DNA of 64,000 nt from an uncultured Gammaproteobacteria bacterium (GCA_942491555.1 CALOBN010000006.1:128505-192504), one strand, 5' to 3'. Positions 28,901 to 63,330 are shown, numbered from the stretch's first letter. Notes: a model not told the origin generated them from the letters alone. Made by a program: numbers and translations.

Positions 28901-28937
28901 TGGAGTTGCGTGATGCAATCAAAAGAAGGTTGGTTCG

Positions 28938-36668: not shown

Positions 36669-36767
36669 GAATCTACCTGCATGCATGTGGTGCCCCCAAT
36701 TATGACTCCAAACTCATCGCTGAACACTCACCGCTCCACTCCGCCGCTGACAGCCCGGGTAATAACA

Positions 36768-37448: not shown

Positions 37449-37454
37449 CAGGCG

Positions 37455-38537: not shown

Positions 38538-38552
38538 TCCCGGGCTGACTGC

Positions 38553-41531: not shown

Positions 41532-41541
41532 TGGATTTCTC

Positions 41542-42540: not shown

Positions 42541-42703
42541 TTTTGGATTCTCCTTTTGCGAGATGAGGTTTGGGACTGTCCACTGGGAAGGGCAGGTGCA
42601 ACTTGGGCATCCCCGTCGAGAACTCGGCATTCTCCAATGACAGCGGCGACGCGAAGCGCCGCTCGCTGCAACCAATTGCCAGGTATGACAAAGTTTATTT
42701 GCC

Positions 42704-44125: not shown

Positions 44126-44239
44126 TGGTATGTCCTCTCGCTATTTGAGGCTTGAAACAATCTAATTGGCGTGCCTGACCCTACAGGGGGTATTTGTCTT
44201 GTGCCGCCGAATAATCTTGGCGAGGGGTGCATGAGCTGC

Positions 44240-44773: not shown

Positions 44774-44828
44774 TGTTTTGTCCTTTTAATGGGTGAAATT
44801 GATCTGACGTCGCACAGGTTTCTCGCCC

Positions 44829-46472: not shown

Positions 46473-46603
46473 AATCGTCTCATTGCTTGATGATAGTTTT
46501 TGAACTCGACACAAGTCATCATGACCTGGTGAGGTTTGCTGAGCGCTCGATTCCTAACGGACAGTCGTTAATCTTTGAGCATAGTTCGGATATCCATGCC
46601 GCG

Positions 46604-46659: not shown

Positions 46660-48123
46660 TCAAAATGAGTACTTGGCCATCAACTGGAGGCGCGTGGCGG
46701 TCCCGGTTGCGTCGTTTTGTACCCGCGTCTTGCCATACATGATCTCCGCACCGGTCGAAAAATTGCCCTGTTTGGGGCTCCAGATAATATTCAGATGCCC
46801 GATCCCACCAGTCTTCAGCTCGAAAGGGCCGCGCGCCTCCGGCGTGTCCAGCACACCGTAGGCGTAAGATCCTTGTGTGGTCAAGGTCGGTGACCAGTCA
46901 TAGCCAAATCCAAGCACGGCGGCGAATGACGGAAACGTAGTGAGAGTACCGTCGGCCTCCAGGATCGCGTTGGCGTCGGTACCAGCGAAGGCCATGATGT
47001 TTTCACCAGCACCCTCCGTGTAGGTGAGGTGGTAAGTCATGAACGCCCTATCGCCGATGTTTTGGCGGCCGCCGACCAGGAATGCGAGTTGCACCGCGCT
47101 GTCCGAGGGTTCGTCCTCAAAGCCATCCCAGTGAAGCTGACCGATGCTCGCTCCAAAGGAAACAATACCGCCGTCGTAGTCGTAGTCGGCCCGCGCAGCG
47201 AACATCGGCCACTGCGTTGTGGCTTTGCCGGGAAGGTCGTTCAAATTTTGTATACCGAGAAACTGCAAGTCCTCTGCAGAAACCGCAAATGTCCAGCGAT
47301 CGTTCAGTGGCCTGGTGTAGCGTATCTGTGCTGCGCGGCCGCCGAACAGGGCGTCTCCTGCGGCAAAGTCAATCATGATCGGTATTGCCTCCAGGAACGT
47401 GAGGTTTGTCCAGGTCTGACCGATAATAAAATCGCCTGCTGTTATATAGGCCTGGCGCAGGCGAAACTTGTCGTCGGGCGTAAAGAAGTCCCCCTCGATG
47501 AAGCCCCTGAGGGGCACCGCCCCGGGGATGATCCGGCGGATGTCGAGATTGAATCGCGTGTCATTGGCAAAGAAATCGACGTAGGGATCGCCACCAAACT
47601 CAGGCATCCCCTCAACCGGAATGGTTCGCATAAGAAACTGTCGAGGGTCGAGCGTGCCGTCAAAATCGGCGACAAAATCGCCTTTAATATAGCCGCCGAT
47701 TTTCATCCGCGTGTTAGTGCCAAACATCGGCCAGGAAGCCGGGAACTCGTCTGAGATCAGATCATCACTTGTCATAATCTGATGCGTCTCGCGCACACCC
47801 CCGTTCAGTCCCTCTACCTGACCGGAATGTATGTCAGAATCTTCCAGGGGCGTCGAACCGGTCATCGCCAGGCTCTCGTCACTCTCTACAAGCTCGCTAC
47901 TCACTAACGCATCGCTGCTCTGCGCAACCTCGTCACTCTCTGCAACCTCGCCACTCATTGTCTCGAGCTCGAGTTGCTCAATGCGTTTTTCCAGTTGCTT
48001 CACAAGCTTCTGCAGTTCGAGTATGCGCTCGTCCTGTTCCGAATCCTCGCTCTGCAAATCCTGCGCCTGGACCAGCGATGCAGCCGACAGCGCGAGAGCG
48101 GCAACCGTAACGCATACTGCCAT
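46660..48123 (-). CDS. outer-membrane porin with N-terminal coiled coil (DcaP-like)
   Basis: ORF 46660..48150; ATG 48123 gives MAVCVTVAALALSAASLVQA. Coiled coil ILELQKLVKQLEKRIEQLELE, alternating beta-strand pattern, C-terminal ...LMAKYSF. Confidence 0.75.
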   Translation of the reverse strand: MAVCVTVAALALSAASLVQAQDLQSEDSEQDERILELQKLVKQLEKRIEQLELETMSGEVAESDEVAQSSDALVSSELVESDESLAMTGSTPLEDSDIHSGQVEGLNGGVRETHQIMTSDDLISDEFPASWPMFGTNTRMKIGGYIKGDFVADFDGTLDPRQFLMRTIPVEGMPEFGGDPYVDFFANDTRFNLDIRRIIPGAVPLRGFIEGDFFTPDDKFRLRQAYITAGDFIIGQTWTNLTFLEAIPIMIDFAAGDALFGGRAAQIRYTRPLNDRWTFAVSAEDLQFLGIQNLNDLPGKATTQWPMFAARADYDYDGGIVSFGASIGQLHWDGFEDEPSDSAVQLAFLVGGRQNIGDRAFMTYHLTYTEGAGENIMAFAGTDANAILEADGTLTTFPSFAAVLGFGYDWSPTLTTQGSYAYGVLDTPEARGPFELKTGGIGHLNIIWSPKQGNFSTGAEIMYGKTRVQNDATGTATRLQLMAKYSF

Positions 48124-48304
48124 CCGGAAACTATTCACTTGCCAGGTCACCTGTGACTGGACCAGGGCAAGGTTTGGGGTTTTCGATTTGAATGATACTT
48201 GCTTCCTTTGAAGCCAGGAGGGATCAGGAATTTACCCTGCACTACACGGACCGGGGCAAGCCAGACGTTTAGCCTAAAAGTGATAACACGGGGCTCGGTA
48301 ATAA

Positions 48305-48329: not shown

Positions 48330-49643
48330 TCAGCCGTAAAGCGACTTCCAGCGCTGGTCGTCCCGCAGCACAGCCAGCCGGGGGTCAACTTTGGCGCCGT
48401 AAAACCAGGGGCATTGCTCGACGCGTGCTTCATTCAGCAAAGACAATGCCTCGTCAGTTCTGCCCAGGGCCACAAGTGCGGGCGCCATGATCGGACGCGG
48501 ACACCGTGGCAGCTGAGCGCTGTAGGCCTTCTCGAGCAGGTCGGCGGCTTCGTCCGTCTTGCCGCAGACCGCCAGAGGCCAGGCCACAAAGGCCCTGGTA
48601 GCGGGTATATCCGGCGCCAGGGCCAACGCTTTGTGTGCAAATTCCAGCGCCTGCGGATAGTCGCCGAGCGTGGCGAGGAAAATGCTGATAAACGCGTGGG
48701 CAAGATCTTCCTTCGGGTGGTGTTCCAGAATCTGGCGTTCGAAATCCAGGGCCTCATTGACCCTGCCCGCGAGAAACAGGGTGATATCGTGCACTGCAGA
48801 ATTATACCGGGAGTGCGGATCCAGTCCGACGGCGCGGGCGGCGGACGCTAGCGCCGCTTGCAGATTGCCCTCGGCGCGGTGAACCAGGGCCTCATAGGCG
48901 TAGCTGCGCGAATACCCGGGATCGAGACGCTGTGCGTGAGCGAGAGATTTCTTTCCCGTCTCCATCTCGCCTTGTTGCAGCGCCTCGAACAAGCCACGCA
49001 CACCCAGGGCCTGGACGATGTTGGGGTCTATGCTTTGCGCCGCATGGCAGGCATCGAGGCCCACCCGTAAACCCTCCTGTGGCTGGATGAACCCCCGAAA
49101 GCACTGGATCATGCTCACTTCGGCTATGGCCGCGTGCGCTGCGGCGTAATCCGGGTCGACTCGCACAGACTCTCTGAACCAATGGAGGGCCCGTTCCATG
49201 GAGTCCGGATCGGGGTAATTGGCAGCGGCCAGTCCTGCCTGAAAGTGCGAATAAGCCTGTGGTTTGGTTTGAATCGTACTTTCCAGTGCCGACCGGTGGG
49301 AGCTCATCCATGAACGGTCGGCCGGAACCACCAGTCTATACCCCCGCTTCGGAATGGTCCTGATGTATTCGCGCCCTTCAGGTTTCAGGGCATTTCGCAA
49401 TGAATAGACGCAACGGACCAGGGATTGGTAGCCGACCGACTGACGCGGCCAGAGATGACGATAGATGGTTTCGTGTTCAACGACCTCACCGTGGTTGAGA
49501 GCCAGCAATTCCAGCAGCGCCATTTCTTTGGGAGGTAAGTGAACTTCACGATCATCGCGCCACAACCCAACGCCGACTTTCAGTCGGAAGGGTCCAAATT
49601 GTTGATGGACGTCTGTGGACATCGGATGCACCGGCGAACCCAT
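48330..49643 (-). CDS. winged-helix (OmpR/CadC-type DNA-binding domain) transcriptional regulator fused to TPR repeats
   Basis: ATG 49643. FGPFRLKVG...REVHLPPKEMALLELLALNHGEVVEHETIYRHLWP...IRTIPKRGYRLV is a trans_reg_C wHTH domain, followed by about 300 aa of TPR. No TM segment. Confidence 0.8.
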   Translation of the reverse strand: MGSPVHPMSTDVHQQFGPFRLKVGVGLWRDDREVHLPPKEMALLELLALNHGEVVEHETIYRHLWPRQSVGYQSLVRCVYSLRNALKPEGREYIRTIPKRGYRLVVPADRSWMSSHRSALESTIQTKPQAYSHFQAGLAAANYPDPDSMERALHWFRESVRVDPDYAAAHAAIAEVSMIQCFRGFIQPQEGLRVGLDACHAAQSIDPNIVQALGVRGLFEALQQGEMETGKKSLAHAQRLDPGYSRSYAYEALVHRAEGNLQAALASAARAVGLDPHSRYNSAVHDITLFLAGRVNEALDFERQILEHHPKEDLAHAFISIFLATLGDYPQALEFAHKALALAPDIPATRAFVAWPLAVCGKTDEAADLLEKAYSAQLPRCPRPIMAPALVALGRTDEALSLLNEARVEQCPWFYGAKVDPRLAVLRDDQRWKSLYG

Positions 49644-49850: not shown

Positions 49851-49939
49851 TTTATCCTGACCTAAGTGAAACTCGTGAGAAAAATCAGAAGAAAAACCCC
49901 GGTCACATGGATTGCTTTGGCCTTCTGTGTGATCAGCAA

Positions 49940-51403
49940 ATGACCGGGAACAACGAAATACCCGTTCCGAAGAAGCGCAAAAGGCGCCGGATAATTTCAG
50001 CAATTATTATCCTTTTTCACGTTCTGGGCCTGTTGTCTTCGATTGACGCCATCATGAGCACGCGCACCGAACAGGGCGCCGTCGCATGGGCGGTTTCGTT
50101 GAACACGATCCCCTACGTGGCGGTGCCGGCGTACTGGGTACTGGGAAGAAGCAGGTTCCAGGGTTACGTCAGCGCGCGGCAGGACGAGATGGAGGAGATC
50201 GCCGGACTGGAACAGGCGGCCATCGAGCAGGCTCTCGACTACGCTCTGCCGATGGATCAGATCAGCCCTGCTGCCCGGGCGGCGGTCGGCCTCGCGGGCC
50301 TGCCGTATCTGCGCGGCAACTCCCTGGAGCTTCTGATCGATGGCGACAACACCTTTGCCAGCCTTCTCAAGGGAATCGATGCCGCCGAAGAGTACATCCT
50401 TTTCCAGTTCTTCATCGTCAAAGACGACGAGATCGGGCGACAGGTCAAAGCACACCTTGTCAAAAAGGCTCAGGCCGGGGTGCGGGTTTTTTTCCTCTAC
50501 GACGAGATGGGCAGCCATGACCTTCCCCAGGCTTACATGGATGATCTGCGTCAGGCCGGTGTCGAGGTCTACAACTTCCATAGCCAGAAAGGGCCCGGTA
50601 ACCGGTTCCAGATCAACTTCCGCAACCACCGCAAGATCGTGGTGGTGGACGGCAAGGAGGCATGGGTCGGCGGCCTTAACGTGGGCGACGAGTACCTGGG
50701 CCGTGATCCGAAGTTCGGTCATTGGCGTGACACTCATATGCGGATCGAGGGCCCGGCAGCACTCGGTGCTCAGCTCTCATTCGCTGAGGACTGGTATTGG
50801 GCGAGCGAACACTGGCTGGATCTGTCGTGGAATCCGGTGCCCTCCGGGGACGGTGATATCCCGGTCCTGATCCTTCCCACCGGCCCAGCCGACGAACTCG
50901 AGACCGCCAATCTGATGTTCGTGCATGCGATCAACAGCGCGCAGGAACGTATCTGGATTGCCAGCCCCTATTTCGTCCCCGACCGGCCCGTGATCACCGC
51001 GCTCCAGCTCGCCGGCCTGCGCGGGGTCGATGTACGAATCCTGATCCCCGACACACCTGACCACCTTGCAACCTGGCTGGCCGCCTTTTCATACTTCGAC
51101 GAGTCCGCCAGCACCGGCGTCGACTTCTACCGCTACCAGGACGGCTTCCTGCACCAGAAAGTGATGCTGGTCGACGACGAGGTTTCCACCGTCGGCACGG
51201 CCAACTTCGACAACCGCTCCTTCCGTCTCAACTTCGAGATCACCGCGCTGATCGAAGATGGCGATTTCGCGGCCGAGATCGAGCACATGCTCGAGGCCGA
51301 CTTCGCCAGGTCAAGGCTGATGCAGCCCGGCGAGTATGACAACAAGCCGTGGTGGTTCCGCTTCGCGGTCAAACTCGCGCGGCTGACGGCACCGATTCAG
51401 TGA
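49940..51403 (+). CDS. cls: cardiolipin synthase
   Basis: ORF 49907..51403; ATG 49940. N-terminal TM helices and two HKD motifs, NHRKIVVVDG...GGLNVGDEY and LHQKVMLVDD...GTANFDNRSF. Confidence 0.9.
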   Translation: MTGNNEIPVPKKRKRRRIISAIIILFHVLGLLSSIDAIMSTRTEQGAVAWAVSLNTIPYVAVPAYWVLGRSRFQGYVSARQDEMEEIAGLEQAAIEQALDYALPMDQISPAARAAVGLAGLPYLRGNSLELLIDGDNTFASLLKGIDAAEEYILFQFFIVKDDEIGRQVKAHLVKKAQAGVRVFFLYDEMGSHDLPQAYMDDLRQAGVEVYNFHSQKGPGNRFQINFRNHRKIVVVDGKEAWVGGLNVGDEYLGRDPKFGHWRDTHMRIEGPAALGAQLSFAEDWYWASEHWLDLSWNPVPSGDGDIPVLILPTGPADELETANLMFVHAINSAQERIWIASPYFVPDRPVITALQLAGLRGVDVRILIPDTPDHLATWLAAFSYFDESASTGVDFYRYQDGFLHQKVMLVDDEVSTVGTANFDNRSFRLNFEITALIEDGDFAAEIEHMLEADFARSRLMQPGEYDNKPWWFRFAVKLARLTAPIQ

Positions 51404-51583
51404 ACTCATGCCGGGTTGAAACGGCCATATTGCCCAGGATGCTGTCCGTGGCGGCGGAGGGGCTTGCGATTCCGGCCACGGGTATTCAAACTCCGGTGAT
51501 GAACTCGCCGTCAGAAGAATCACCGGCGCCATCGACAGGGTTCGGGTCACTCGCCTGGCTGCGCCCCGTAACGGGCAAACGCC

Positions 51584-52627
51584 ATGACCGCTGAAGCCAC
51601 GCAGCGCGCATTCTTCAGCATTCTGCTGCTGATCGTCACGCTCGCTTTCTTCTGGGTGATTGGCGGATTCATTCAGCCGATCTTCTGGGCGACTGTGCTC
51701 GGGATCGTTTTCTTCCCGGCCTACAACTCCATCAAGGGTCGGTTGGGAGGACGCGAGACCGTCGCATCTGGCGTGACGCTCGTCGTCGTTTTGCTTGTCG
51801 CGATTATCCCCATTACGTGGATCGTTTCGGTCGTCGCCAGCCAGGCCGCCGGGTTGTACGTCAATATCCGCAGCGGCGAAATCGATGTCGGCGCCGTTTT
51901 CGACTGGTTCAATGCGAAACTCCCCGTCGTGGTGTCATGGCTCGAATCGATGGGCATTGACGCCGAGAAAATGCGTGCCATGGCATCGTCGTTCGGCCTG
52001 CGGGTGAGCCAGTTCCTGGCCAACATCCTGGTGGGCTTTGGCCAGAACATCGTGCGGTTCTCGCTCATGTTCACGCTGATGCTCTACATCCTGTTTTTCG
52101 TGTTCCGTGACGGCCAACGCATTCTCGACGCAGCGATCCTGGCCGTTCCGCTCGACGAAGACAAGAAGCAGGAGTTGCTCATGCGCTTTGCCGAGGTTTC
52201 ACGTGCGACGATAAAGGGCACAGCCATCATTGGCGTCGTCCAGGGAGGGATCGGCGGCATCGCCTTCGCGGCGCTTGGTATTCCCTCGGCGGCGCTCTGG
52301 GGTGTGCTCATGGTGCTCCTGAGCGTCGTGCCCGCCGTTGGCCCAGCCCTGGTGTGGATGCCGGCCACTCTTTACTTTTTCGCAGTCGGGCAGTATGTCC
52401 AGGGTGCCATCCTGCTCATTGTCGGCGGTGTTTTCATCAGCTTGGCGGACAACGTGCTGCGCCCGGTTCTTGTCGGCCGCGACACGCGTATGCCCGACTA
52501 CCTGGTGCTCGTTTCTACCCTCGGGGGGCTCCTCCTGTTCGGGCTCGCCGGTGTAGTCATCGGCCCGATGATTGCTGCCTTGTTCATCTCTGTCTGGGGC
52601 ATGGCAGCGAAGGAATACGGAGAATGA
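51584..52627 (+). CDS. AI-2E family transporter (PerM/UPF0118)
   Basis: ATG 51584; 347 aa with about 8 TM helices. The C-terminal LADNVLRPVLVG block is typical of the family. Stop at 52625-27, and the next gene's ATG is at 52629. Confidence 0.85.
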   Translation: MTAEATQRAFFSILLLIVTLAFFWVIGGFIQPIFWATVLGIVFFPAYNSIKGRLGGRETVASGVTLVVVLLVAIIPITWIVSVVASQAAGLYVNIRSGEIDVGAVFDWFNAKLPVVVSWLESMGIDAEKMRAMASSFGLRVSQFLANILVGFGQNIVRFSLMFTLMLYILFFVFRDGQRILDAAILAVPLDEDKKQELLMRFAEVSRATIKGTAIIGVVQGGIGGIAFAALGIPSAALWGVLMVLLSVVPAVGPALVWMPATLYFFAVGQYVQGAILLIVGGVFISLADNVLRPVLVGRDTRMPDYLVLVSTLGGLLLFGLAGVVIGPMIAALFISVWGMAAKEYGE

Positions 52628-52628
52628 A

Positions 52629-54509
52629 ATGTCGAAAGTGAATAACCAACCAAAAGAAAGAAATGACGGGCACCCATCGATGGCATGGGCCCTGGTGCTG
52701 GCCGGATTGATGGCGTTCGTGCTCCAGGCCTGTGAAAAGAGCGTCGCACCGACCTGCGAAGGAGACACCATGACCGATAACAATTGCCCTGAACCCGGAG
52801 CGGTCGACGACCCCTTCATTACGGAACTGGCGAAACGACGCCAGTGGTACGATTCCCGGGAACTCGGAGAGGTCGGAATCGAACCCGCCGAAGTGGCACG
52901 CACGTTCGATTTGCCAGTCAGTAACGCGGTCGGGAAGGTGATTCCGCCCACGGACGACGGCTCCCAGGATTCTCTCGCGCTGAAGATCTGGATGATCGAG
53001 CAGGCGCGCCATACGGTGGATGCGATCTACTACATCTACAAAGACGATCTTGCCGGACAGGCGGTGCTGGGCGCCTTGTGCGACGCCGTGATTCGTGGCG
53101 TGGACGTTCGCCTCGTCGTTGATGCAGTGGGGTCCTTCAGCTTTCCAAAGTCGGCCCTGAGGATGCTGGATGCCTGTGAGGAAGACGCCGGGTACATCAG
53201 GAATGCCGAGGGCCAGCCGACGCGACAACGTGCGCGCGTCCAGGTTGCCGTCTTCAATGCGCTGACCAACCTGTCCGCCAGCCCCAACCGTCGCTCACAT
53301 GACAAGCTGCTGATTACGGACGGGGACTTTGCAGACAAAGCACTGCTTATCACGGGGGGACGGAACATTGCCCTCGACTACTACGGGCTCACCGAAACCG
53401 GTGAGTTCGACCCCCGGACCTATCGCGATGTGGAGCTGCTGTTACGTCCCGCCGACACTCCCGGGAAAGACGATATCGGCGTATTGACCAGTGGATACTT
53501 CGGCGCGCTGTTCCTGTTCAAGGGCAATGACCTGCTCGAGGCGCACCACAGTAAGCCCGCCCGGGCAAGGTACCGTTCGAAGCGGACCCACGCGAGCGAG
53601 GCGCTGGCAAAACTCAAGCAGTTTCCAGCGATGCGGGAACGGTTCGCGAAAATGCCTGAGTACACGAGCGAGGGCTTCGTGGAGACCGGGGTCCGGCTGG
53701 TAGAACAGTTGTCGCATGTCGTCGACAAGCGGGTTGTACGCAATGCGGTGGACAACTATCTGAACAGCCCCAACTCCGTCCTGTTCGTTCTCAATGAGGT
53801 CCTGAGCCAGACATCCGCCGGCGGGCAATCGCGTATCTGCTCGCCCTACCTCTTTCTGGCGCGCTACGAGGACTCGGACGGCCAGGTCGTCGTAGACGAA
53901 GCGGAGGCGATCCGGGCGTACATCGAAGCGAATCCGGATGCCGAGATCGAAATTATGACCAATTCGGCGATGACCTCGGACAACTTTCCGGCACAGTCCG
54001 TCATCGACTTCGACACGGCGCCGCGACTGCTCCTGGATGAAGAACTGCGCCAGCGCTGGCTGGACCTGGGATCAGAAGACGAAACGCTTGCCGAGTTAAC
54101 CAACAGCGACGCCTGGAAGCAGCAGGTCAACCATCCGCGAATACGCATCTACCAGACCGGCCTTAACGACTCCGACCTGTTCCCGGGGGGAACAGAGACT
54201 TATGGCAAGCTGCATGCCAAGTTCTGGCAAGCCGAACCCTACGGATTCATCGGCACGACCAACTTCGACTACCGATCGAGGTTGTACAACAGCGAGATGG
54301 GCTACTTCTTCGAAGCCGAGCCGCTGGCGGAAGATCTGAATACCGTGTTCGAGGAACTGAAATCGCAGTCCTACCGCTGGGGTTCTCCGGAGTGGCTGCA
54401 AATGCGCGAGAACATGAAAGCCGCGGGTGGGATTAAAGGCCAGACGCTGCGCCGGCAGCGAGCCATATTCAAAACTTTGCGGGCCACCGGGCTCGAATGG
54501 GAGTTTTGA
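52629..54509 (+). CDS. phospholipase D (HKD) family lipoprotein, paralog A
   Basis: ORF 52572..54509; ATG 52629. Lipobox-like FVLQAC. HKD-1 RRSHDKLLITDG...ITGGRNIALDY and HKD-2 GKLHAKFWQAE...GTTNFDYRS. Confidence 0.85.
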   Translation: MSKVNNQPKERNDGHPSMAWALVLAGLMAFVLQACEKSVAPTCEGDTMTDNNCPEPGAVDDPFITELAKRRQWYDSRELGEVGIEPAEVARTFDLPVSNAVGKVIPPTDDGSQDSLALKIWMIEQARHTVDAIYYIYKDDLAGQAVLGALCDAVIRGVDVRLVVDAVGSFSFPKSALRMLDACEEDAGYIRNAEGQPTRQRARVQVAVFNALTNLSASPNRRSHDKLLITDGDFADKALLITGGRNIALDYYGLTETGEFDPRTYRDVELLLRPADTPGKDDIGVLTSGYFGALFLFKGNDLLEAHHSKPARARYRSKRTHASEALAKLKQFPAMRERFAKMPEYTSEGFVETGVRLVEQLSHVVDKRVVRNAVDNYLNSPNSVLFVLNEVLSQTSAGGQSRICSPYLFLARYEDSDGQVVVDEAEAIRAYIEANPDAEIEIMTNSAMTSDNFPAQSVIDFDTAPRLLLDEELRQRWLDLGSEDETLAELTNSDAWKQQVNHPRIRIYQTGLNDSDLFPGGTETYGKLHAKFWQAEPYGFIGTTNFDYRSRLYNSEMGYFFEAEPLAEDLNTVFEELKSQSYRWGSPEWLQMRENMKAAGGIKGQTLRRQRAIFKTLRATGLEWEF

Positions 54510-54587
54510 CCTGTTATCAGAGCCCCCGTCCGGGCCGTGATTCGCCCCAATCGTGCCCCGAACCGCAACCTGGCTTGCCTGCGCAGA

Positions 54588-55187
54588 TCAGTCTGATGGC
54601 CGTACCAGATCTGAGATGGTGTCCATCTGCTCGCCCCAGGTCGCGTAGCACCCGGCCCAGGCGCCGGTTTCGCAGGTTTTCTTGCCTTCGCGTTTAAGTG
54701 CGAAGATACGCTGTGGGCTTATTCCGGCGCTCGCATAGGCTTCAAAATCGGAGCTGGAGTCGCCGTAGGCGGCGACGAAGTCACAGCCGCCCGCTTCATA
54801 GGACTCCAGCACACGTTCTTTGAACGCGGCGTGATCCTTCCGGTCGTCGCGCGATTCGGTCAGGTGCAGCCTGCCCGGCGGAAATTCGTTCTCGTCGAGC
54901 CAATCGCGAATACCTCCCCGCAACCCCCGAATTCGGGCGCTAAGGTAGACGATAAGGTATCCCGAATCGGCAAACGCACGAACAGCGGTTGCAGCGCCCT
55001 CCCGAGCGGTCTTAATGGACAGGACATCCGGCGTAAGGGTTCCGTCGATGTCAAACACCACGCATTCTGACTGCACAGCCGTTGCCAGCTCCGGCTGGTC
55101 GACGCTGCGGATTATCGCTACGCCCACCATGAGCAAAAGCATAAAGAGTAACAGCCAGCCCACTGCCGGAATTTTTATGGTGTGCAT
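54588..55187 (-). CDS. membrane-anchored LNS2 (lipin/Ned1/Smp2)-like DxDxT phosphatase
   Basis: ORF 54588..55331; ATG 55187 (MHTIKIPAVGWLLLFMLLLMVGVAII TM anchor). VVFDIDGTLT (lipin catalytic DIDGT), GYLIVYLSAR, FPPGRL and AAYGDSSSDFEAYASAGISPQRIFAL are collinear with LNS2 blocks. Confidence 0.7.
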   Translation of the reverse strand: MHTIKIPAVGWLLLFMLLLMVGVAIIRSVDQPELATAVQSECVVFDIDGTLTPDVLSIKTAREGAATAVRAFADSGYLIVYLSARIRGLRGGIRDWLDENEFPPGRLHLTESRDDRKDHAAFKERVLESYEAGGCDFVAAYGDSSSDFEAYASAGISPQRIFALKREGKKTCETGAWAGCYATWGEQMDTISDLVRPSD

Positions 55188-55302
55188 GACCCCGGGCCCG
55201 ACCCGCACTGCAGGCGCCGACGGACAAACACGGCCGTCGGGTGCGGTACGGGCCTGCCGAAAAATATCATGGCAAGGCGTCGACCTGCCAATTCCGCCGG
55301 AT

Positions 55303-57183
55303 TCAGAATTGCCATTGGAGCCCCGTGGCACGCAAGGTCTTGAATATGGTGCGCTGCTTGCGCAGCGTCCATCCTTTCATACCATCCAGCTCCATCAGAT
55401 TTTTGCGCATTTGCAGCCATTCCGGTGAACCCCAGCGGTAGGACCGCGATTTCAGTTCCTCGAACACGGAACCCAGGTCTTCGGCCAGCGGCCCGGCGTG
55501 GAAGAAATAGCCCATTTCGCTGTTATACAGCCGTGAGCGGTAGTCGAAGTTGGTCGTGCCGACAAATCCGTAAGGCTCGGCCACCCAGAACTTGGCATGC
55601 AGCTTGCCGTAAGTCTGGGTACCGCCCGGGAACAGGTCAGAGTCATTAAGACCCGTCTGGTAGATGCGTATTCGCGGGTGGTTCACCTGTCGCCGCCACT
55701 CGTCGCTGCTGGTCAGCTCGGCGGTCGTTTCATCCTCCGATTTCAGATCCAGCCAACGCTCCTGCAATTCCGGATCGAGCAGCAGGCGGGGCGCCATGTC
55801 GAAATCGATGACGGACTGAGCCGGAAAGTTGTCGGACGTCAATGCAGAATTCGTCACAATCTCGATCTCGGCATCCGGGTTTGAATCGATATAGGCCCGA
55901 ATCGAGGCTGCCTCGTCGAGGATCACCGTGCCATCGGAGTCCTCGTAGCGCGCCAGAAACAGGTAGGGCGAGCAGATGCGCGAGTTTCCGGCAGCGTCCG
56001 TTCTGTCCAGGATTTCATTCAGGACGAAAAGCACGGAATTGGGACTACGCTGGAGGTTCACGATTGCGTCGCGCACGACGCGCTTGTCGACTACGTTCGA
56101 CATTTGCTGGGCCAGCAGAACGTCCGCCGGCAAAAAACCCTCGGACATGAAATCCGGAATCTCTGCGAAGCGTTGCTGCATTATCGGGAAGCTTTTCAGT
56201 TTCGCCAACGCCTCACGTGCCCGGGCGCGCTCCGATTGGTAAATGATGCGGGCATTATCGGTATTGACCGCCTCGAGCAGGCGGTTAGCCTTGAACAGGA
56301 ACAGCAGGCTGAAGTACCCACTGGTCAGGTCCCCGACACCTTGCTCATCGGGAACCTCTACGGGCCGCAACAATATTTCGAGATCGCGGTAGGCCTTGGG
56401 ATCAAATTCGCCGTCTTCGGTGAGCCCGTAGTAGTCGAGCGCGATGTTCCGCCCTCCCGTGATGAGGTATGCCTGCTCCCCGAATTGCCCATCCGTAATC
56501 AGCAACTTGTCGTGGGAACGGCGATTGGGGCTGGCGGAAAAATTGGTCAGCGCGTTGAACACAACGACCTGGACGCGGGCACGTTGCCGGGTCGGAAGGC
56601 CCTCGGCGTTCGTCATGTATCCGGCGTCCTCCTCGCAGGAGTCCAGCATTCTGAGCGCGGGCTTTGGAAAACTGAATGAACCGCCTGCGTCGACAATCAG
56701 GCGGACGTCTACGCCGCGAATCACTGCATCGCAAAGCGCGCCCAGCACGGCATAACCGGCGAGGTCGTCACTGAAAATATAGTAGGCCGCGTCCACGGTA
56801 TGACGTGCCTGCTCGATCATCCAGATCTTCAGCGCCAGCGAGTCAAGTGCTCCGGTATCGGTCGGCGGCACCAGTTTACCGACGGCGTTCTGTATCGGAG
56901 TTTCGTATGTCCGGGCCGTTTCCGTGGGCTCAATCTCGAGCTCGCGGAGGTCCCGGGACGAATACCACTGGCGTCGGTCGAGCAGTTCCGAGATGAATGC
57001 ATCGTCTACCGCGCCCGGTGCGGGGCAACTGGCCGCGGGCAATGTACCTGCTTCGCAGGACGGTGCGGGCGTCGTGGCACAGGCTTGCAACAAAACCGCC
57101 ACGACCCCGGCCAGGAACACGGCAAGCAGTTTCTTCAGAGGGCTGATGATGCTGTCCTCAGGTTGGCGCGTTGGATGTGGCAT
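55303..57183 (-). CDS. phospholipase D (HKD) family lipoprotein, paralog B
   Basis: ORF 55303..57288; ATG 57183 (or 57222). Lipobox-like VLLQAC. The same two HKD blocks as paralog A (RRSHDKLLITDG, GKLHAKFWVAE...GTTNFDYRS). High aa identity to A by eye; the last 150 nt are about 80% identical. Confidence 0.85.
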   Translation of the reverse strand: MPHPTRQPEDSIISPLKKLLAVFLAGVVAVLLQACATTPAPSCEAGTLPAASCPAPGAVDDAFISELLDRRQWYSSRDLRELEIEPTETARTYETPIQNAVGKLVPPTDTGALDSLALKIWMIEQARHTVDAAYYIFSDDLAGYAVLGALCDAVIRGVDVRLIVDAGGSFSFPKPALRMLDSCEEDAGYMTNAEGLPTRQRARVQVVVFNALTNFSASPNRRSHDKLLITDGQFGEQAYLITGGRNIALDYYGLTEDGEFDPKAYRDLEILLRPVEVPDEQGVGDLTSGYFSLLFLFKANRLLEAVNTDNARIIYQSERARAREALAKLKSFPIMQQRFAEIPDFMSEGFLPADVLLAQQMSNVVDKRVVRDAIVNLQRSPNSVLFVLNEILDRTDAAGNSRICSPYLFLARYEDSDGTVILDEAASIRAYIDSNPDAEIEIVTNSALTSDNFPAQSVIDFDMAPRLLLDPELQERWLDLKSEDETTAELTSSDEWRRQVNHPRIRIYQTGLNDSDLFPGGTQTYGKLHAKFWVAEPYGFVGTTNFDYRSRLYNSEMGYFFHAGPLAEDLGSVFEELKSRSYRWGSPEWLQMRKNLMELDGMKGWTLRKQRTIFKTLRATGLQWQF

Positions 57184-57293
57184 CTGCTTATCCTGCCCGA
57201 TCAGGCTGTAATTTTCGATCATCTCGCACCTAAGATATTCATTATTCCGTATCCCCGGGTTAGCTACCTGGGGGCCTATCATGCGCACCGTGA

Positions 57294-57842
57294 CTAGGAA
57301 CCCTGCACCTTCATCAGATTATGCAGGGTGGTGCCCAGCAGCAAGGCGATCAATCCGATAAAAATCAGTTTAACGCCCATCAGGACGCCGATGGCGATTA
57401 CGCCTGAAAACGGCGCCTGGAAAAAAAGCAGGCAGGCCAGCAGAACCGAAAGCACACCGCCGGCAAACAGCCAGCCCTTCCCCTTGCTGCCCTCGAGAGT
57501 GATGGCCACGATGATTTCCACCAGGCCGTCCATGAACAGGTAGCTTGCAAGGACAATGGTCAAAACGCCGCTGGCCAGAAGCGGATGTCCAACGATGAAA
57601 ACACCCGCCAGCAAGGTAAGCACCCCCACCAGGAATTTCCAGGCACCACTTCCGAAGGAATCGGCCCGGAATACCCAGATCATACGTAAGACACCAGCCA
57701 CCGTGACCACCAGCCCCACGAACAGCAACATCGACTCACCGACCACGAACGGAGCGGCCAGGGCCGCGATGCCGAGAATGATCGTAACGATGCCGATGAC
57801 TTTTGCGCTGGCGGAGGCGTCCGATTCGCTTGCGGTATTCAT
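57294..57842 (-). CDS. HdeD/DUF308 family membrane protein
   Basis: ORF 57294..57917; ATG 57842 (MNTASESDASASAKVIGIVTIILGIAALAAPF...). Paralog of 44240..44773. Confidence 0.8.
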   Translation of the reverse strand: MNTASESDASASAKVIGIVTIILGIAALAAPFVVGESMLLFVGLVVTVAGVLRMIWVFRADSFGSGAWKFLVGVLTLLAGVFIVGHPLLASGVLTIVLASYLFMDGLVEIIVAITLEGSKGKGWLFAGGVLSVLLACLLFFQAPFSGVIAIGVLMGVKLIFIGLIALLLGTTLHNLMKVQGS

Positions 57843-58014
57843 AGCTCTTCTCCCTGCCCGCATCACGAAAACTTTTGTCTCGTCGTCGGGTTCCTGGTTG
57901 TGGATTGACAGATGCACGCGAGTGTAAATGATTTGGTCGGTTTCCGAGTAGCTCCGGGCTCACCCAACAAGATGCCGTCTGCAAAACCTGTATACAAAAT
58001 CTGCTTTATAAGGT

Positions 58015-59520
58015 TTAAAGCTGGTTCTCAGGCGCAATTCTCAGAAACCAGGCGGAAAACCGGCGCCACCACGAAGCCAGCGGCTCTTTCGTCTCCACGA
58101 CTTCCTCACCATCAATATTGGCGTGCCAGCGCAGTTTTCCCTGCTCATTCAATGTGACACGGTAGGTCCATTGGGGAAGGCTGCTGAACAATTGTTCCGA
58201 CAGGCTTTCTGTCATTTCAGGCGAAAAGACCACCACGCCCATTTCCGAGTTGATCGCGATTGACCGGGGGTCCAGGTTCAGTGATCCCACGAACACGCTT
58301 TCGCGGTCAAATAGCATGGCCTTGGTATGCATGGTCATGGTCTGGTCTTCAGCAGCAACCGCATCGGCGCGCGCTTCAAATAACTCGACGCCCGCCCGGA
58401 TGATGTCTTTACGATACCTGGCATAACCCGAATGGACTGCCGTGTGGTTATTGGCTGCCAGGGAATTGGTGACAATGACAACTCGCACACCCTTGTCCAC
58501 GATGGAGCGCCAGAAATCAACGCCTGCCTCGCCGGGAATAAAGTAGGGTGTCATGATCACCACTTCAGAAGTGACTTCAGTGACAACTTCGGTCAGCGCC
58601 TTGACCAGCAGCCTGTTGTCAACATCAATCGCGGTGACGAGCTTGTCCGGATCATCCGTGATGACAATGGCATCAGCCGAGTAAAACCGGGTTTCCTGTT
58701 GACCGATACTCAGCATCAGATCCGAGTCGAACGCGTCCTGGTAGTGTTTGCGGGCCGCCTCAAGTTTTTCGCGAGAGAGAGTGTTGCGGAAATCCGCCAA
58801 TTCCTGCTCGGAAATGCGCCCCACCACGGCCTCTGCCGGCACCGAACGTTCGTGATTCCAATAACGGTCAAACTCAACGGACAGGGCCTCGGAAACCTCA
58901 CCAAAGATGAGCATATCGAAGTCCAGGAACTCGCCTTCCTGATTCAGGTTGAAATACTCATCGGCAATGTTTCGGCCACCCACAACGGCGGCAGCATTAT
59001 CAACAATAAATGACTTGTTATGCATTCGCCGGTTGGCGCGACTGAAGTCGCCCAGGTAGTTAAGCCCTTTGATTCCGGTTCTGGAAACCGGGTTGTACAA
59101 ACGCAACTCGATATTGGGGTGACCATCGATGATGGTCATTGCCTCATCCCCCACGGTGGTGAAAATATCGTCCAGCAGGAAGCGGACGCGAACACCCCGG
59201 TCGGCGGCGGCGAACAGCGCCGAGGCAAAAACCTGCCCGGCCAGGTCGTTTTTCATCAGAAAATACTGCGCGTCGATGGTTTTTTCCGCGGCTTCGATCA
59301 GGCGCAAGCGCGCACCCAGGGCATCGGTTCCGTCGACGAGCGGGTAGAAACCGGAAGGGCCGGGATTGATTGCCTGCCATGTCTCAATTGTCTGTTTCAG
59401 CGCTGTGGATTCACTGGCATCCATGGCAAAACTGGCCTCACGGGGCGTGTCAAAATCGACCGTTGCACAGCCAGCCAGCGCTGCAAAACAAAGAATGAGT
59501 AAATGATTGTTAATGCGCAT
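58015..59520 (-). CDS. phospholipase D family lipoprotein (ClsC-like architecture)
   Basis: ATG 59520. Canonical lipobox LAGC. HKD motifs MHNKSFIVDN...GGRNIADEY and MHTKAMLFDR...GSLNLDPRS. Confidence 0.85.
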   Translation of the reverse strand: MRINNHLLILCFAALAGCATVDFDTPREASFAMDASESTALKQTIETWQAINPGPSGFYPLVDGTDALGARLRLIEAAEKTIDAQYFLMKNDLAGQVFASALFAAADRGVRVRFLLDDIFTTVGDEAMTIIDGHPNIELRLYNPVSRTGIKGLNYLGDFSRANRRMHNKSFIVDNAAAVVGGRNIADEYFNLNQEGEFLDFDMLIFGEVSEALSVEFDRYWNHERSVPAEAVVGRISEQELADFRNTLSREKLEAARKHYQDAFDSDLMLSIGQQETRFYSADAIVITDDPDKLVTAIDVDNRLLVKALTEVVTEVTSEVVIMTPYFIPGEAGVDFWRSIVDKGVRVVIVTNSLAANNHTAVHSGYARYRKDIIRAGVELFEARADAVAAEDQTMTMHTKAMLFDRESVFVGSLNLDPRSIAINSEMGVVVFSPEMTESLSEQLFSSLPQWTYRVTLNEQGKLRWHANIDGEEVVETKEPLASWWRRFSAWFLRIAPENQL

Positions 59521-59552
59521 CCGGAGAAAACTCCTCTTGAACGATCATTTTA

Positions 59553-59574
59553 CGGGCTCGAATGGGAGCTTTGA
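59553..59574 (+). pseudogene. orphan copy of the last codons and stop of PLD paralog A
   Basis: CGGGCTCGAATGGGAGCTTTGA matches 54488-54509 (CGGGCTCGAATGGGAGTTTTGA) at 21/22 nt. It reads GLEWEL* against the intact GLEWEF*. Intergenic, on the opposite strand to both neighbours. Confidence 0.6.
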
Positions 59575-59593
59575 GCTACACGCGGCTGGCGGT

Positions 59594-60469
59594 TCATTCC
59601 CACCCGGCGCGGGGTCCGATTTCGGCATAAATCGCAAGATGATCGGCGACGATGTCCGGCAAGACCTGGTGGTCTATAAACTCGAGGTCCTTTGAAATCA
59701 GGATCCAGTCCAGTCGCTTGCCGTTACGCCCCTTGTAGGTGCCCATGCCTTCTTTGCCAGGCGCATGGGCGTGAAGGTCGAGTTTATCGGCCAACCGCCT
59801 CACCTGTGACTCCGGATCGTTCCACTCGCTGTTGAAATCGCCCATGACGACAAGCGGACCATCGATCTTCGCGAGCACGTCAGAGAGCTCATCGATCTGC
59901 CGATCGCGGACACCGTCACGCAGGAAGTCCAGGTGAAGCGAGGCAAAAGTGATGGACCGGACCCTGCCGCTAACCTGCCAATCGAAGGTTGCCCAGACAA
60001 ACCCTTTTCGCTTGGAAGGCCAGGACGGTTCAAAAGTCACCGACGCGTAAGCGCTCGGCCGGCTGCTCGTCAATAGCGCGGTGCCGTAGTTCGAAATCCA
60101 GGTCTGTGAGTGAAGTCCGTGCAACCGGCATTGGTAACCGGCGCGCTCAGCGATACGCTCGACATGGTCGAAGTTACCGCTCCAACGCGACGGCGCGTCC
60201 GCCTCCTGAAATGCAACCACGTCCGGGCCCTGATCGACGAGCAGCGCAGCAATCTCGTCGAGGTTAGCGTGGGTGTTGTCCTGGCTGACAAACAGCTGGT
60301 TGAGTGCGGTGCTGCGCCCATGGCTGATATTCAGGCTGAGCACACGGATGCGGTCCGCCGGCAGCGATGCAATTTCGTCCTCCGGTTCACACCATTTTAA
60401 TGACTCGCTTTGAGACTGTGTTGCCAGGGGCAATATCATCAAAAGGGCTGAACCCAGGATTCGAAACAT
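59594..60469 (-). CDS. endonuclease/exonuclease/phosphatase (EEP) family protein, secreted
   Basis: ORF 59594..60529; ATG 60469 (MFRILGSALLMILPLATQSQS). Blocks RVLSLNISHG, VVAFQEAD, VVMGDFNSEW and DHLAIYAEI are typical of the EEP fold (sphingomyelinase/phosphodiesterase type). Confidence 0.8.
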   Translation of the reverse strand: MFRILGSALLMILPLATQSQSESLKWCEPEDEIASLPADRIRVLSLNISHGRSTALNQLFVSQDNTHANLDEIAALLVDQGPDVVAFQEADAPSRWSGNFDHVERIAERAGYQCRLHGLHSQTWISNYGTALLTSSRPSAYASVTFEPSWPSKRKGFVWATFDWQVSGRVRSITFASLHLDFLRDGVRDRQIDELSDVLAKIDGPLVVMGDFNSEWNDPESQVRRLADKLDLHAHAPGKEGMGTYKGRNGKRLDWILISKDLEFIDHQVLPDIVADHLAIYAEIGPRAGWE

Positions 60470-60605
60470 CGCTGATACTCCCGCATAATTGGCTTTGCCG
60501 GGTTTGGGTAAGACGATCAACATGACCATCTCTGGGTTGCCGCCCCCAAACCTTGATCCGGTGCGGGCGTTTCAGGGCGACCTGTCCGGGACCGGCCGTG
60601 TGAAC

Positions 60606-61424
60606 CTAGCGCTTGCAACCACCAAAGCAAAAGCGCGGTTCGGTAAAGTAGATGAAACCGATTTCAAACCCCGCACCCCCGGAGCCGTCAAAGGCATCCG
60701 AGTAGGTCGCGGCCCAGACCCATTTCTTTCCTTCCCAGCGAACGCCAGCCCGGTAGCTTGGCGGTGCATAGGCCTCGCCAGCGGTGCCAAAGACCTCGGC
60801 GACAATCGCCGACTGGGGGATCACATCGTAGATCGCGAGTCTTGAGGCGTAGGTAAAACCCCAGGCGGTTTCACCCGTGTCGCCCTGGTCGAGGTTGACC
60901 TGAACCCCGGGTATTACGTCGAGCAGGACGCGGTCATTATTCCAGCCATAGGTAGCGGTCAGTGTCGAAAAATAGGAATCAAAGGCCTGGGTGACCACGC
61001 CCTGTTCGAGATAGTCCGGGTTGACGCCCGTTCCGACAAAGAGGGAGTAACCGGTGGTTTTTGCATCGTTCTCTGAGAGTCGGAATTTGGCGTAATAACT
61101 GGCGGCGGTATGGGATTCCGTCGAGTCGCGGGGGTCGTCATAGTAGTGAAAAAACTGCGCGTTTAACTCCAGGCCTTCTTTGGCGGCAAGCACAAATATG
61201 TAGGTAGAATATTCCTCACCGACCGAGCCGGCCTGGGTGGACACGCCATGCGGCGCCGTCCACTGGTTGTCTCCCATAAACTGCTGCGCCTGCGCGGGCG
61301 CCACCAGGACCAGCATTGCAAAAGCACCGATTAGCCAGGGACCAAACCGGGCTGGTGTGATTCTTGCCAAAGAAATTTTAAACACATTGGTTGCCTTCGT
61401 TTCGGGTTTGTCTGTGATCTTCAT
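60606..61424 (-). CDS. probable outer-membrane beta-barrel protein (hypothetical)
   Basis: ATG 61424. Signal-like LIGAFAMLVLVAPAQA, then alternating aromatic/hydrophilic strand pattern (YSTYIFVLAA, GYSLFVGTGV, GFTYASRLAIY). Family not recognised. Confidence 0.55.
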   Translation of the reverse strand: MKITDKPETKATNVFKISLARITPARFGPWLIGAFAMLVLVAPAQAQQFMGDNQWTAPHGVSTQAGSVGEEYSTYIFVLAAKEGLELNAQFFHYYDDPRDSTESHTAASYYAKFRLSENDAKTTGYSLFVGTGVNPDYLEQGVVTQAFDSYFSTLTATYGWNNDRVLLDVIPGVQVNLDQGDTGETAWGFTYASRLAIYDVIPQSAIVAEVFGTAGEAYAPPSYRAGVRWEGKKWVWAATYSDAFDGSGGAGFEIGFIYFTEPRFCFGGCKR

Positions 61425-61636: not shown

Positions 61637-61969
61637 ATGGGACTTGGATACCAGGAACACAGGGTTTACGTCGACATCGCGAAAGGTTTTCGGGAAATTC
61701 GACGCGCTGAGAATGCTTTTTACAAGGATAAGCTGGACAGTGGCCTCAATCACCTTACTAAAGCCCTGAATGATTTCAGCGCGGCCGTGGACCATGCGGA
61801 AAAAGCTGCGGACGATGCGTACGACAAGGCGGCCAAAGACATCGACAAAGGTAACGCTGAGCTGCAGAAAAGCATTGATGCGTATGCTGATGACGATAGC
61901 GACAAGGCTGCGACGCATTACGATCGGGCGGTGGCCCATTTCGACGATGCGTTGGATTTAATCTCCTAG
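61637..61969 (+). CDS. small acidic Ala/Asp/Lys-rich helical protein (hypothetical)
   Basis: Strong SD AAGGAG 8-13 nt before the ATG. 110 aa with no signal peptide and repeated DxAxKAxxDxxD-type helical segments. Followed by a strong terminator. Confidence 0.6.
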   Translation: MGLGYQEHRVYVDIAKGFREIRRAENAFYKDKLDSGLNHLTKALNDFSAAVDHAEKAADDAYDKAAKDIDKGNAELQKSIDAYADDDSDKAATHYDRAVAHFDDALDLIS

Positions 61970-62142: not shown

Positions 62143-63330
62143 ATGATCAAACTCCGAGTTACCGCTCTGCTGCTTGCCTGTGGCCTGTCGCCGCTCACAT
62201 TCGCCGAAAACTGGCAGCCCATTACGGGCGCTGACGCCCTGCGCGACATAATTTCCGGGGCCGTGGTCGAGGTAAAGCTGAAAGCCGGCGTCACCTCCAT
62301 TGCCACTTATTCGGCTGACGGTACCGCGGTGGTCAAGGCCTGGGGCGAGTCCTTCCAGCGCACCTGGCAGATCGTGGGAGATGACCAGGTCTGCTACACG
62401 GATATCGAGACCAACTGCTTTACCCTGGAGCGGAATGCGGATGATCCGGGAGCGCTCAGAGCCACTGATGTGGAGAGCGGCGAGGTCTTCATGGCGCAGA
62501 TCTCCGGATCCGCTGGCGCTGAATTTATCGTGGAAGAACCGGCGGGCAGCGAGGGCGCGCTGGGTGAACCCTCTGCAGCGGAAGTTGCCGCTGCCCTGCT
62601 GGATCCGAACAGCACCTTGGGCACCCTGAATTTTAATCTTGATTACGTTTCTTACGAGGGTGATATTCCCGGAGCTGGCAGCGCGGAAGCCTGGCGCATG
62701 GTCTTTCAGCCCGTGTTGCCTTATTCGTTATCCGAATCCACCAACCTCTTTGTGCGTCCGGCGATTCCGGTAATTTTTTCCCAGGACGTACCGCGGGCGG
62801 GCGGCGGCTTCAGCTCCGAGGGGGTTGAACTGGGTGATATCGGCTTTGATGTAGCGGTGGGCAAAACCCTGCCCGGTGGAATCGTGGTGCTCGGGGGCGT
62901 TGTAGGCGCCTTGCCAACGGCCACCAATGATGCGCTCGGACTGGATCAATGGCTGCTGGGCCCGGAGTTCGCCATCGCCAAGCTGGCGGATTGGGGTGTT
63001 GTGGGCGTGCTCCTGACGCACCAGTGGGATATCGCCGGCGAGGACGACTTCGACACCAGCATTACCGGTGGTCAATACTCCTATGCCTTCAACCTTGAGA
63101 ACGGCTGGCAGATCTTCAGCGCACCGACCTTTTCGTACAACCATGAGGCCAGTAGCGGCAACAAGTGGACGCTCCCCGTGGGGGTCGGTGTCGCCAAGAC
63201 TTCGATCATCAGCGGCCGGCCCTGGAAATTCACTGCCCAGTACTGGCAGTACGTGAAAACCCCGGAAGACTTTGGGCCTGACTTCCAGTTGCGTTTCACC
63301 ATTACGCCGGTGGTTAGTCTGCCCTGGTGA
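62143..63330 (+). CDS. exported protein with C-terminal beta-barrel-like domain (hypothetical)
   Basis: ATG 62143. Signal peptide MIKLRVTALLLACGLSPLTFA, a ~100-aa N-terminal domain, then beta-strand-rich sequence ending ...LRFTITPVVSLPW. Confidence 0.55.
   Translation: MIKLRVTALLLACGLSPLTFAENWQPITGADALRDIISGAVVEVKLKAGVTSIATYSADGTAVVKAWGESFQRTWQIVGDDQVCYTDIETNCFTLERNADDPGALRATDVESGEVFMAQISGSAGAEFIVEEPAGSEGALGEPSAAEVAAALLDPNSTLGTLNFNLDYVSYEGDIPGAGSAEAWRMVFQPVLPYSLSESTNLFVRPAIPVIFSQDVPRAGGGFSSEGVELGDIGFDVAVGKTLPGGIVVLGGVVGALPTATNDALGLDQWLLGPEFAIAKLADWGVVGVLLTHQWDIAGEDDFDTSITGGQYSYAFNLENGWQIFSAPTFSYNHEASSGNKWTLPVGVGVAKTSIISGRPWKFTAQYWQYVKTPEDFGPDFQLRFTITPVVSLPW

Follow-up and report, generated by a model that had tools for sequence, protein, structure and literature searches.

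Between 49.9 and 61.4 kb of a 64,000-nt stretch of DNA from an uncultured gammaproteobacterium of marine-sediment type (GCA_942491555.1, CALOBN010000006.1:128505-192504; hereafter the window) lies a crowded set of nine genes, including four of the phospholipase D (PLD) family, one for a lipin-like phosphatase and one for a secreted phosphoesterase of the EEP family. The packing of these enzymes side by side had been noticed in a sequence-only reading of the DNA and is confirmed here. Open reading frame (ORF) calling recovers all nine genes at the coordinates given below, and Pfam and NCBIfam agree with the families named for them; a Pfam scan matches PLDc_2, LNS2, PF03372, PF03729 and PF01594, as that reading had anticipated.

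Two convergent strings of genes meet at 54509/54588, a junction that had been placed correctly. The plus strand carries cls, encoding a ClsA-type cardiolipin synthase (49907..51403; TIGR04265 405 bits, cutoff 290; PLDc_2 E 2e-42), a gene for an AI-2E family permease (51584..52627; PF01594 145.6 bits) and the gene of PLD-A (52629..54509), a 626-aa lipoprotein with lipobox LQAC and two HKD motifs. PLD-A was said to start just after the permease stop, and it does: TGA occupies 52625-52627, ATG begins at 52629 with one base between them, and GGAG is found upstream. On the minus strand, counting from the junction, there follow an exported LNS2-type phosphatase of the HAD superfamily (199 aa, 54588..55187; PF24694 95.6 bits; PF08235 34.9 bits, cutoff 32.3), PLD-B (55303..57183), which is likewise a 626-aa lipoprotein with lipobox LQAC and two HKD motifs, a multi-pass inner-membrane protein with a DUF308 domain (57294..57917; PF03729 62 bits), a 501-aa ClsC-like lipoprotein with lipobox LAGC and two HKD motifs (58015..59520; PLDc_2 E 1e-34), the secreted EEP-family phosphoesterase (59594..60469; PF03372 57.5 bits, cutoff 24.5) and an exported 272-aa protein with a conserved C-terminal CxGGC (60606..61424). 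PLD-A and PLD-B score 56-58 bits against PLDc_2. Each of the four proteins (cls, PLD-A, PLD-B, ClsC-like) matches this model twice, as members of the PLD superfamily with two copies of HxK(x)4D(x)6G(G/S)xN per chain do, and the three other than cls stay below the TIGR04265 cutoff of 290 with 44-110 bits. A terminator-like hairpin with a T-run, found by a consensus scan and seen in the sequence, lies on the minus strand between the PLD-B stop and the LNS2 start (55270..55290). Rfam and tRNA scans of the window gave no matches.

Conservation singles out one pair among these genes, and it is a pair that the sequence-only reading missed. We sampled 85 loci (locus numbers beginning with L are ours) that carry homologues of PLD-A and PLD-B, here called long PLDs; 63 of them are informative, having at least 1100 bp of upstream sequence. 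An EEP homologue lies upstream of the long PLD in 69 of the 85 loci; in 57 of the 63 informative ones it is the immediately preceding gene on the same strand. The commonest spacings from the EEP stop to the nearest long-PLD start are -8 and -4 nt, and gene calls give an 8-nt overlap in L082 and L085. The widely conserved unit is thus an EEP gene followed by a translationally coupled long PLD of about 615 aa, present in most of the marine-sediment gammaproteobacterial contigs. Other partners are rare near long PLDs: LNS2 occurs in 1/85 loci, AI-2E in 2/85 and a ClsC-like or cls gene in 6/85. In three relatives (L003, L004, L005) a second, diverged EEP gene, whose product is 39-44% identical to the window EEP, stands directly downstream of a PLD-A copy. 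This second copy seems to have been lost in the window, since only 78 nt separate the PLD-A stop from the LNS2 stop.

An arrangement of the same kind exists in E. coli, where ybhP (EEP), clsB and ybhN are consecutive with 4-nt overlaps. There, as in the 57 loci, an EEP gene is directly upstream of a two-HKD gene and overlaps it. YbhP is without known function (bioRxiv 10.1101/2022.03.11.483950). Our EEP family aligns with it over the full length (hhalign probability 95%, 26% identity), a similarity that does not establish orthology. The two systems differ in several respects. The E. coli proteins have neither signal peptide nor lipobox, whereas the window proteins carry conserved disulfide cysteines and are lipoproteins or exported. 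Compared with ClsB, the long PLD has about 200 aa more and shows only weak similarity (E 3e-4). The window has no YbhN/PplT gene, and its EEP and PLD-B genes are two genes apart.

PLD-A and PLD-B are 72% identical over 629 aa. The 3´ parts of their genes form an inverted duplication with arms of about 1.6 kb (52923-54509 and 55303-56889, 76-77% nucleotide identity in a repeat search), which stop exactly at the two stop codons and enclose the LNS2 gene in a 793-nt spacer. If the arms recombined, LNS2 could be inverted. Across the alignment of the long-PLD family both HKD motifs are invariant; in the second one (HAKFWxxE) the acidic residue is not strictly D, which is variation of a known kind. 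In sequence, the closest matches of the long PLD are ClsC (E 3e-14) and the cardiolipin-synthase model (PLD-A, E 5e-13; PLD-B, E 1.6e-11), and the protein scores better against ClsC/Cls models than against any nuclease model. Among PDB sequences it matches PLD3/4 exonucleases only (E 1.7e-5), and the second HKD alone is covered. An AlphaFold model of PLD-B (pLDDT 81) was used for a fold search, in which PssA, Streptomyces PLD and other lipid-acting PLDs rank over the PLD3/4 nucleases, with TM-scores of just 0.4-0.67 and identities of 11-15%. PssA and the secreted PLDs of Streptomyces and Moritella, the top fold matches, share the bilobed two-HKD fold with the long PLD; they differ from it in lacking its additional helical insert, its lipid anchor and its usual EEP neighbour. 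The AI-2E permease is translationally coupled to PLD-A, and the order AI-2E then PLD-A is kept in L005, L006 and L090; this coupling is specific to the clade of the window. In L004 and L005 the alignment of several genes is broken into two pieces that overlap or adjoin, as a frameshift would produce; this concerns long-PLD copies and, in L004, also the TPR regulator described below. Either pseudogenes or indel errors of the long-read metagenome-assembled genomes (MAGs) could account for it.

The catalytic set of the EEP enzyme is complete and invariant in the family alignment (N45, E87, H177, D179, N211, D252, D274, H275). Its structure model (pLDDT 82.8) confirms the EEP fold in a fold search, where uncharacterised bacterial proteins, Nocturnin, human neutral sphingomyelinase, TDP2, CNOT6L and B. 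cereus sphingomyelinase match about equally well, which leaves sphingomyelinase/PLC-like enzymes unseparated from the nuclease and phosphatase subfamilies. A PDB sequence search with the EEP protein returned no meaningful match.

The phosphatase retains all four HAD motifs, namely DIDGT, the serine of YLSAR, the motif III lysine and the aspartates of motif IV (GDSSxD), and DIDGT is invariant in 24 homologues of the family alignment. The closest solved structures to the family profile are the LNS2 domain of Nir2/PITPNM1 (9jtz, E 2e-18) and the lipin Pah2 (6tzy, E 4e-6), and weak Acid_phosphat_B matches are present as well (26.7 bits for the window protein, 36.4 for that of Ketobacter). Nir2 LNS2 binds the phosphate of phosphatidate via S1025, T1065, K1103 and K1126 (PMC12582312). 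These residues appear to map to HAD motif positions, at which the bacterial proteins would have catalytic residues, for example Asp in place of the Nir2 Ser. With lipin/Pah1 and Nir2 the window protein shares the LNS2-type HAD core including DxDxT. It differs from lipin/Pah1 in its size (about 150 aa when mature), in having no N-LIP/Ig-like domain and no amphipathic helix, and in belonging to a bacterial family that is exported, mostly as lipoproteins, with a conserved C-terminal cysteine pair. Because the N-LIP region is absent, its sequence makes it an LNS2-domain phosphatase and not a lipin. Both nearest solved relatives handle phosphatidate and the bacterial family keeps DIDGT; the protein is a plausible candidate for a phosphatidate phosphatase acting after the PLDs. 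The short LNS2 family comprises 58 clusters at 50% identity (E <= 1e-30, protein library search). The short proteins are about 190 aa long, and many longer ones (300-450 aa) have an LNS2-like domain at the C-terminus (E 1e-20 to 1e-28). In literature searches on bacterial LNS2/lipin homologues we found no paper on such proteins.

That the enzymes carry transmembrane (TM), lipobox or signal sequences was a correct observation: LQAC, LAGC, hydrophobic N-termini and TM helices are all visible in the translations. Hydrophobic signal or anchor N-termini are found in the EEP, LNS2 and 272-aa proteins, and TM helices in ClsA (an N-terminal pair), AI-2E and DUF308. A lipobox is present in most LNS2 homologues, and a pair of C-terminal cysteines is invariant across all of them. 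Two cysteines are likewise invariant in the EEP family, and four or five are conserved in the long-PLD family. Given the lipoboxes, the signal sequences and the conserved cysteine pairs, the enzymes likely reside outside the cytoplasm, where they would fold in the periplasm.

The 501-aa protein is a full-length homologue of E. coli ClsC (YmdC), with 37% identity over 456 aa (E 4e-96) and both HKD motifs. ClsC makes cardiolipin from phosphatidylethanolamine (PE) and phosphatidylglycerol (PG); a ClsC-like activity of the window protein is a prediction. It differs from ClsC by its lipoprotein signal LAGC and a linker of about 30 aa. The neighbours differ too: in E. coli ymdB precedes clsC, whereas here an EEP gene lies upstream of the ClsC-like gene and no macrodomain occurs among the cluster proteins. 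The ClsC-like gene adjoins EEP/long PLD in L128, L130 and L162 and is nearby in L056. The claim that no described system has this composition holds in the literal sense, with the qualification that ybhP-clsB-ybhN and clsC of E. coli are parallels. What is new is that PLD/Cls-type lipid enzymes with an EEP partner occur here in exported form, in duplicate and in the company of an LNS2 phosphatase.

How far the remaining genes belong together was surveyed from the side of LNS2. A profile search with one genome per species yielded 79 LNS2 loci from many phyla, and these were searched with all window proteins. LNS2 lies directly beside a PLD-family gene in about four lineages, which are the window clade, L008, Ketobacter (L027) and Seongchinamella (L056); by a rough estimate, assuming about 4 HKD genes per 4000-gene genome, some 0.15 such adjacencies are expected by chance. 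The partner is a cls gene in Ketobacter L027 and in L008, and long PLDs are near LNS2 only in L003-L006 (uncultured Gammaproteobacteria and a Woeseiaceae MAG) and in Seongchinamella unica L056. Scanning for the HKD motif shows that these 7 of the 79 loci, and no others, have an HKD ORF less than 10 kb from LNS2. The link between LNS2 and PLD is real and belongs to a minority of loci. Neighbour clustering reveals no family-wide LNS2 neighbour across the 79 loci, with response regulators counted 9 times and long PLD 5 times. An OmpR-family response regulator, at a median distance of about 600 bp, is the sole recurrent neighbour of LNS2 besides the PLD-family genes; its carriers (L011, L013, L039, L040, L043, L064, L068, L071, L080) come from different taxa.

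Even among relatives that are 88-95% identical the region is rearranged: the long PLD occurs in two or three copies, EEP can have a second one, and the genes for the DUF308, ClsC-like and 272-aa proteins come and go. Seongchinamella, which belongs to a different order, has at L056 DcaP-type porins, an orf62143-like protein (see below), amidohydrolases, two DUF308 genes, LNS2, a long PLD 308 nt later, a class A beta-lactamase-fold gene, a ClsC-like lipoprotein and a homologue of the 272-aa protein. This is much of the content of the window between 40 and 63 kb, without EEP, cls and AI-2E. In Ketobacter a beta-lactamase-fold gene and an amidohydrolase gene lie just upstream of LNS2-cls. As both L056 and Ketobacter share such genes with the window, a broader neighbourhood of exported hydrolases is common to different orders.

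We tentatively suggest that the interval is a lineage-specific build-up of exported phospholipid head-group enzymes around the EEP-long-PLD unit, with a role in turnover or scavenging; of the readings considered here it is the one we prefer, with a likelihood somewhat short of even. In the lineage of the window the long PLD would have been duplicated, so that PLD-A and PLD-B now flank LNS2 as inverted arms, and one copy, PLD-A, would have become coupled to the AI-2E permease. The ClsC-like lipoprotein, the DUF308 protein and the exported LNS2/HAD phosphatase would have been added in the same lineage, while ClsA and its regulator probably do no more than lie next to the others. The PLDs would cleave or exchange phospholipid head groups in the periplasm or at the outer membrane, with phosphatidate and a free alcohol as products. 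The EEP enzyme might cut a related phosphodiester or phosphomonoester, and LNS2 would dephosphorylate phosphatidate to diacylglycerol and phosphate. A pathway from PLD through phosphatidate to diacylglycerol had been proposed for the interval before. As chemistry it remains reasonable, the HAD motifs being intact and the nearest solved relatives being Nir2 LNS2 and Pah2; as a single conserved module it is largely not borne out. The substrate would most likely be phospholipid of detrital membranes or of the cell's own envelope, to be turned over or scavenged, and fixed biosynthesis is a less likely purpose. We favour turnover and scavenging because of the expansion of paralogues, which reaches three PLDs and two EEPs in relatives, because of the exported-hydrolase context, and because Woeseiales have been proposed to subsist on detrital membranes and cell walls (PMC7082342).

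Several points weigh against this proposal. We infer all of its enzymatic steps, and it offers no explanation of how periplasmic enzymes anchored in the outer membrane would gain access to exogenous phospholipid. PLD-family enzymes are as readily synthases (ClsB, ClsC, PssA) as hydrolases, and the fold search with the EEP model does not single out lipid enzymes. Genomic context is also unfavourable in part. A PLD-family gene is absent within 10 kb of LNS2 at about 72 of the 79 loci, LNS2 usually being alone, and most long PLDs in turn have no LNS2 nearby. Co-conservation, which the sequence-only reading had named as a test, largely fails for the whole cluster: beyond the close relatives L003-L006, where it is rearranged, the full set is not conserved. 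In the window itself the EEP and PLD-B genes share a strand with the ClsC-like and DUF308 genes between them. LNS2 is 115 nt from PLD-B with the terminator-like hairpin between, and it may not be fully co-transcribed with PLD-B; such hairpins are no more frequent than in shuffled sequence, which makes this one a weak sign. Finally, no Pho box is present in 48-63 kb at up to three mismatches to the E. coli consensus, the only one used, and the three matches in other parts of the window are no more than chance would give. For lack of a Pho box nothing ties the interval to phosphate limitation.

Alternatively, the interval would be a mosaic, in which a rearrangement-prone spot has gathered separate units (regulator-clsA, AI-2E-PLD-A, LNS2, EEP...PLD-B, ClsC-like, DUF308) with a general envelope link only. 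Gene order and content that vary even among relatives of 88-95% identity argue for such a mosaic, as do an LNS2 that keeps no conserved neighbour in 79 loci, the low counts of LNS2, AI-2E and ClsC-like/cls genes at long-PLD loci, and intergenic gaps of 73-115 nt with a hairpin before LNS2. We nevertheless regard it as somewhat unlikely, since LNS2 is found beside PLD-family genes in about four lineages, far above chance, since Seongchinamella has much of the gene set in a different order of bacteria, and since four PLD-family genes in 10 kb would hardly come together without selection or local duplication. Were the mosaic true, we would be dealing with an ordinary cluster in a rearrangement-prone neighbourhood of envelope genes. 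A bolder reading goes in the opposite direction. The short bacterial LNS2 proteins would be the first bacterial lipin-type (HAD, DxDxT) phosphatidate phosphatases, acting outside the cytoplasm. Together with the widespread EEP-PLD pair they would provide a path from phospholipid via phosphatidate to diacylglycerol and phosphate, which would serve marine-sediment Gammaproteobacteria in mining detrital membranes; by analogy, YbhP as EEP partner of Cls-type enzymes would be given a role. This seems unlikely to us.

With synthesis in place of degradation, the same enzymes would remodel the envelope of the cell itself. In this case the lipoprotein PLDs would be transphosphatidylases similar to ClsB and ClsC, the EEP protein their accessory subunit, as YbhP may be for ClsB, and LNS2 would trim phosphatidate; the products would be cardiolipin, PG or another lipid of the periplasmic leaflet or the outer membrane. 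The overlapping ybhP-clsB-ybhN genes with their same EEP-then-two-HKD order favour it, and so do the clear ClsC homology of the 501-aa protein, the nearness of the long PLD to ClsC/Cls models and its top fold match, PssA, which is a synthase. In addition, the active site of ClsA is reported to face the periplasm, while the roles and topology of ClsB and ClsC are listed as open questions (PMC8027125). Against synthesis, several diverging paralogues amid exported hydrolases look more catabolic, a Pfam scan of the cluster proteins yields no YbhN/PplT or YmdB partner, and the window EEP is just 23-26% identical to YbhP, with orthology unproven; we judge it quite improbable. Still less credit is due to the scavenging of phosphoesters other than lipids, in which PLD and EEP would be periplasmic nucleases or phosphodiesterases for DNA, RNA or glycerophosphodiesters and the HAD protein a nucleotidase or a class B/C-like acid phosphatase. 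Both superfamilies do include nucleases, PLD3/4 exonucleases are the only PDB sequence matches of the long PLD, TDP2, CNOT6L and Nocturnin are among the EEP fold matches, and LNS2 proteins do match Acid_phosphat_B. But lipid enzymes outrank PLD3/4 by fold and ClsC/Cls models outrank nuclease models by sequence, the window phosphatase scores 95.6 bits with the LNS2 model against 26.7 with the acid-phosphatase one, the genomic links lead to cls and ClsC-like genes, and PADLOC gives generic HKD cross-matches only. We consider this explanation very unlikely.

If the turnover or scavenging role is true, the secreted EEP and the lipoprotein PLD represent a large uncharacterised family pair; for the PLD there are more than 885 homologues, most of which come from marine sediments. 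Together the two would form a phospholipid-degrading unit of the periplasm or the cell exterior, relevant to sediment necromass and phosphorus cycling, and LNS2 would become a concrete candidate for a bacterial lipin-like phosphatidate phosphatase. It would also offer a handle on the role of the EEP protein encoded with ClsB and on the question why bacteria keep several Cls/PLD paralogues (PMC8027125). Our literature searches on Woeseiaceae phospholipases and on periplasmic phosphorus scavenging by PLD plus phosphatidate phosphatase found nothing specific.

The net chemistry would resemble remodelling by PlcP, which also leads from phospholipid to diacylglycerol with release of phosphorus. The means are different: PLD, HAD phosphatase and EEP stand against a single metallophosphoesterase of the phospholipase C type, the cluster enzymes appear to be periplasmic or at the outer membrane, and the interval has no Pho box of the E. 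coli consensus. Neither a PlcP-like metallophosphoesterase nor a glycosyltransferase partner is found among the interval genes scanned. A role in anti-phage defence (DISARM DrmC and the like) was considered and rejected, as the PADLOC matches were generic HKD cross-matches, strongest for cls, and other defence components were absent.

As for the genes at the margins, cls, which has a divergent regulator of its own, is probably an ordinary housekeeping gene of ClsA type that may stand outside the module. Divergent from it on the minus strand is a transcription regulator with an OmpR/CadC-type winged helix and TPR repeats (48330..49643; Trans_reg_C E 3e-16). This TPR regulator, which adjoins cls also in L004 and L005, is a neighbour of the cluster and possibly a local regulator. 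The gene at 57294..57917 had been labelled HdeD; its DUF308 domain is certain, and the HdeD identity is not upheld, the NCBIfam equivalog scoring 51.9 against a cutoff of 189. DUF308 genes adjoin LNS2 also in L004 and L056. Nor could we uphold the label of outer-membrane beta-barrel for the 272-aa protein at 60606-61424, which has no Pfam, NCBIfam or PDB match and can be called an exported protein only. It is 58% identical to a Seongchinamella homologue that adjoins the ClsC-like gene there. A scan for sigma-70 promoters and terminators gave matches no more frequent than in shuffled sequence.

Upstream of the cluster the window contains a run of exported hydrolases (33481-46514), with beta-lactamase-fold proteins at 33481-35271, 41542-42885 and 42704-44125, amidohydrolases at 40188-41711 and 44829-46514, and a DUF885 protein, followed by a DcaP-type porin (46660-48150). 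On the other side, between the 272-aa gene and orf62143, a 110-aa ORF (61637-61969, plus strand) is preceded by a strong Shine-Dalgarno sequence, AAGGAGAAGGAAATG, and encodes an acidic, helical product rich in Ala, Asp and Lys and without signal peptide. The gene orf62143 itself (62143-63330, plus strand) encodes an exported 395-aa protein without Pfam match, which ends in an aromatic residue (...VVSLPW) and possibly belongs to the outer membrane. Its identity is 59% with a protein of the syntenic region in Seongchinamella and 89-93% with those of L003 and L005. Farther away, the GC content falls to 0.48 at 28001-30000, compared with about 0.58-0.63 elsewhere, and a putative rhamnosyltransferase gene (29817-30800) adjoins this dip, which may mark acquired DNA.

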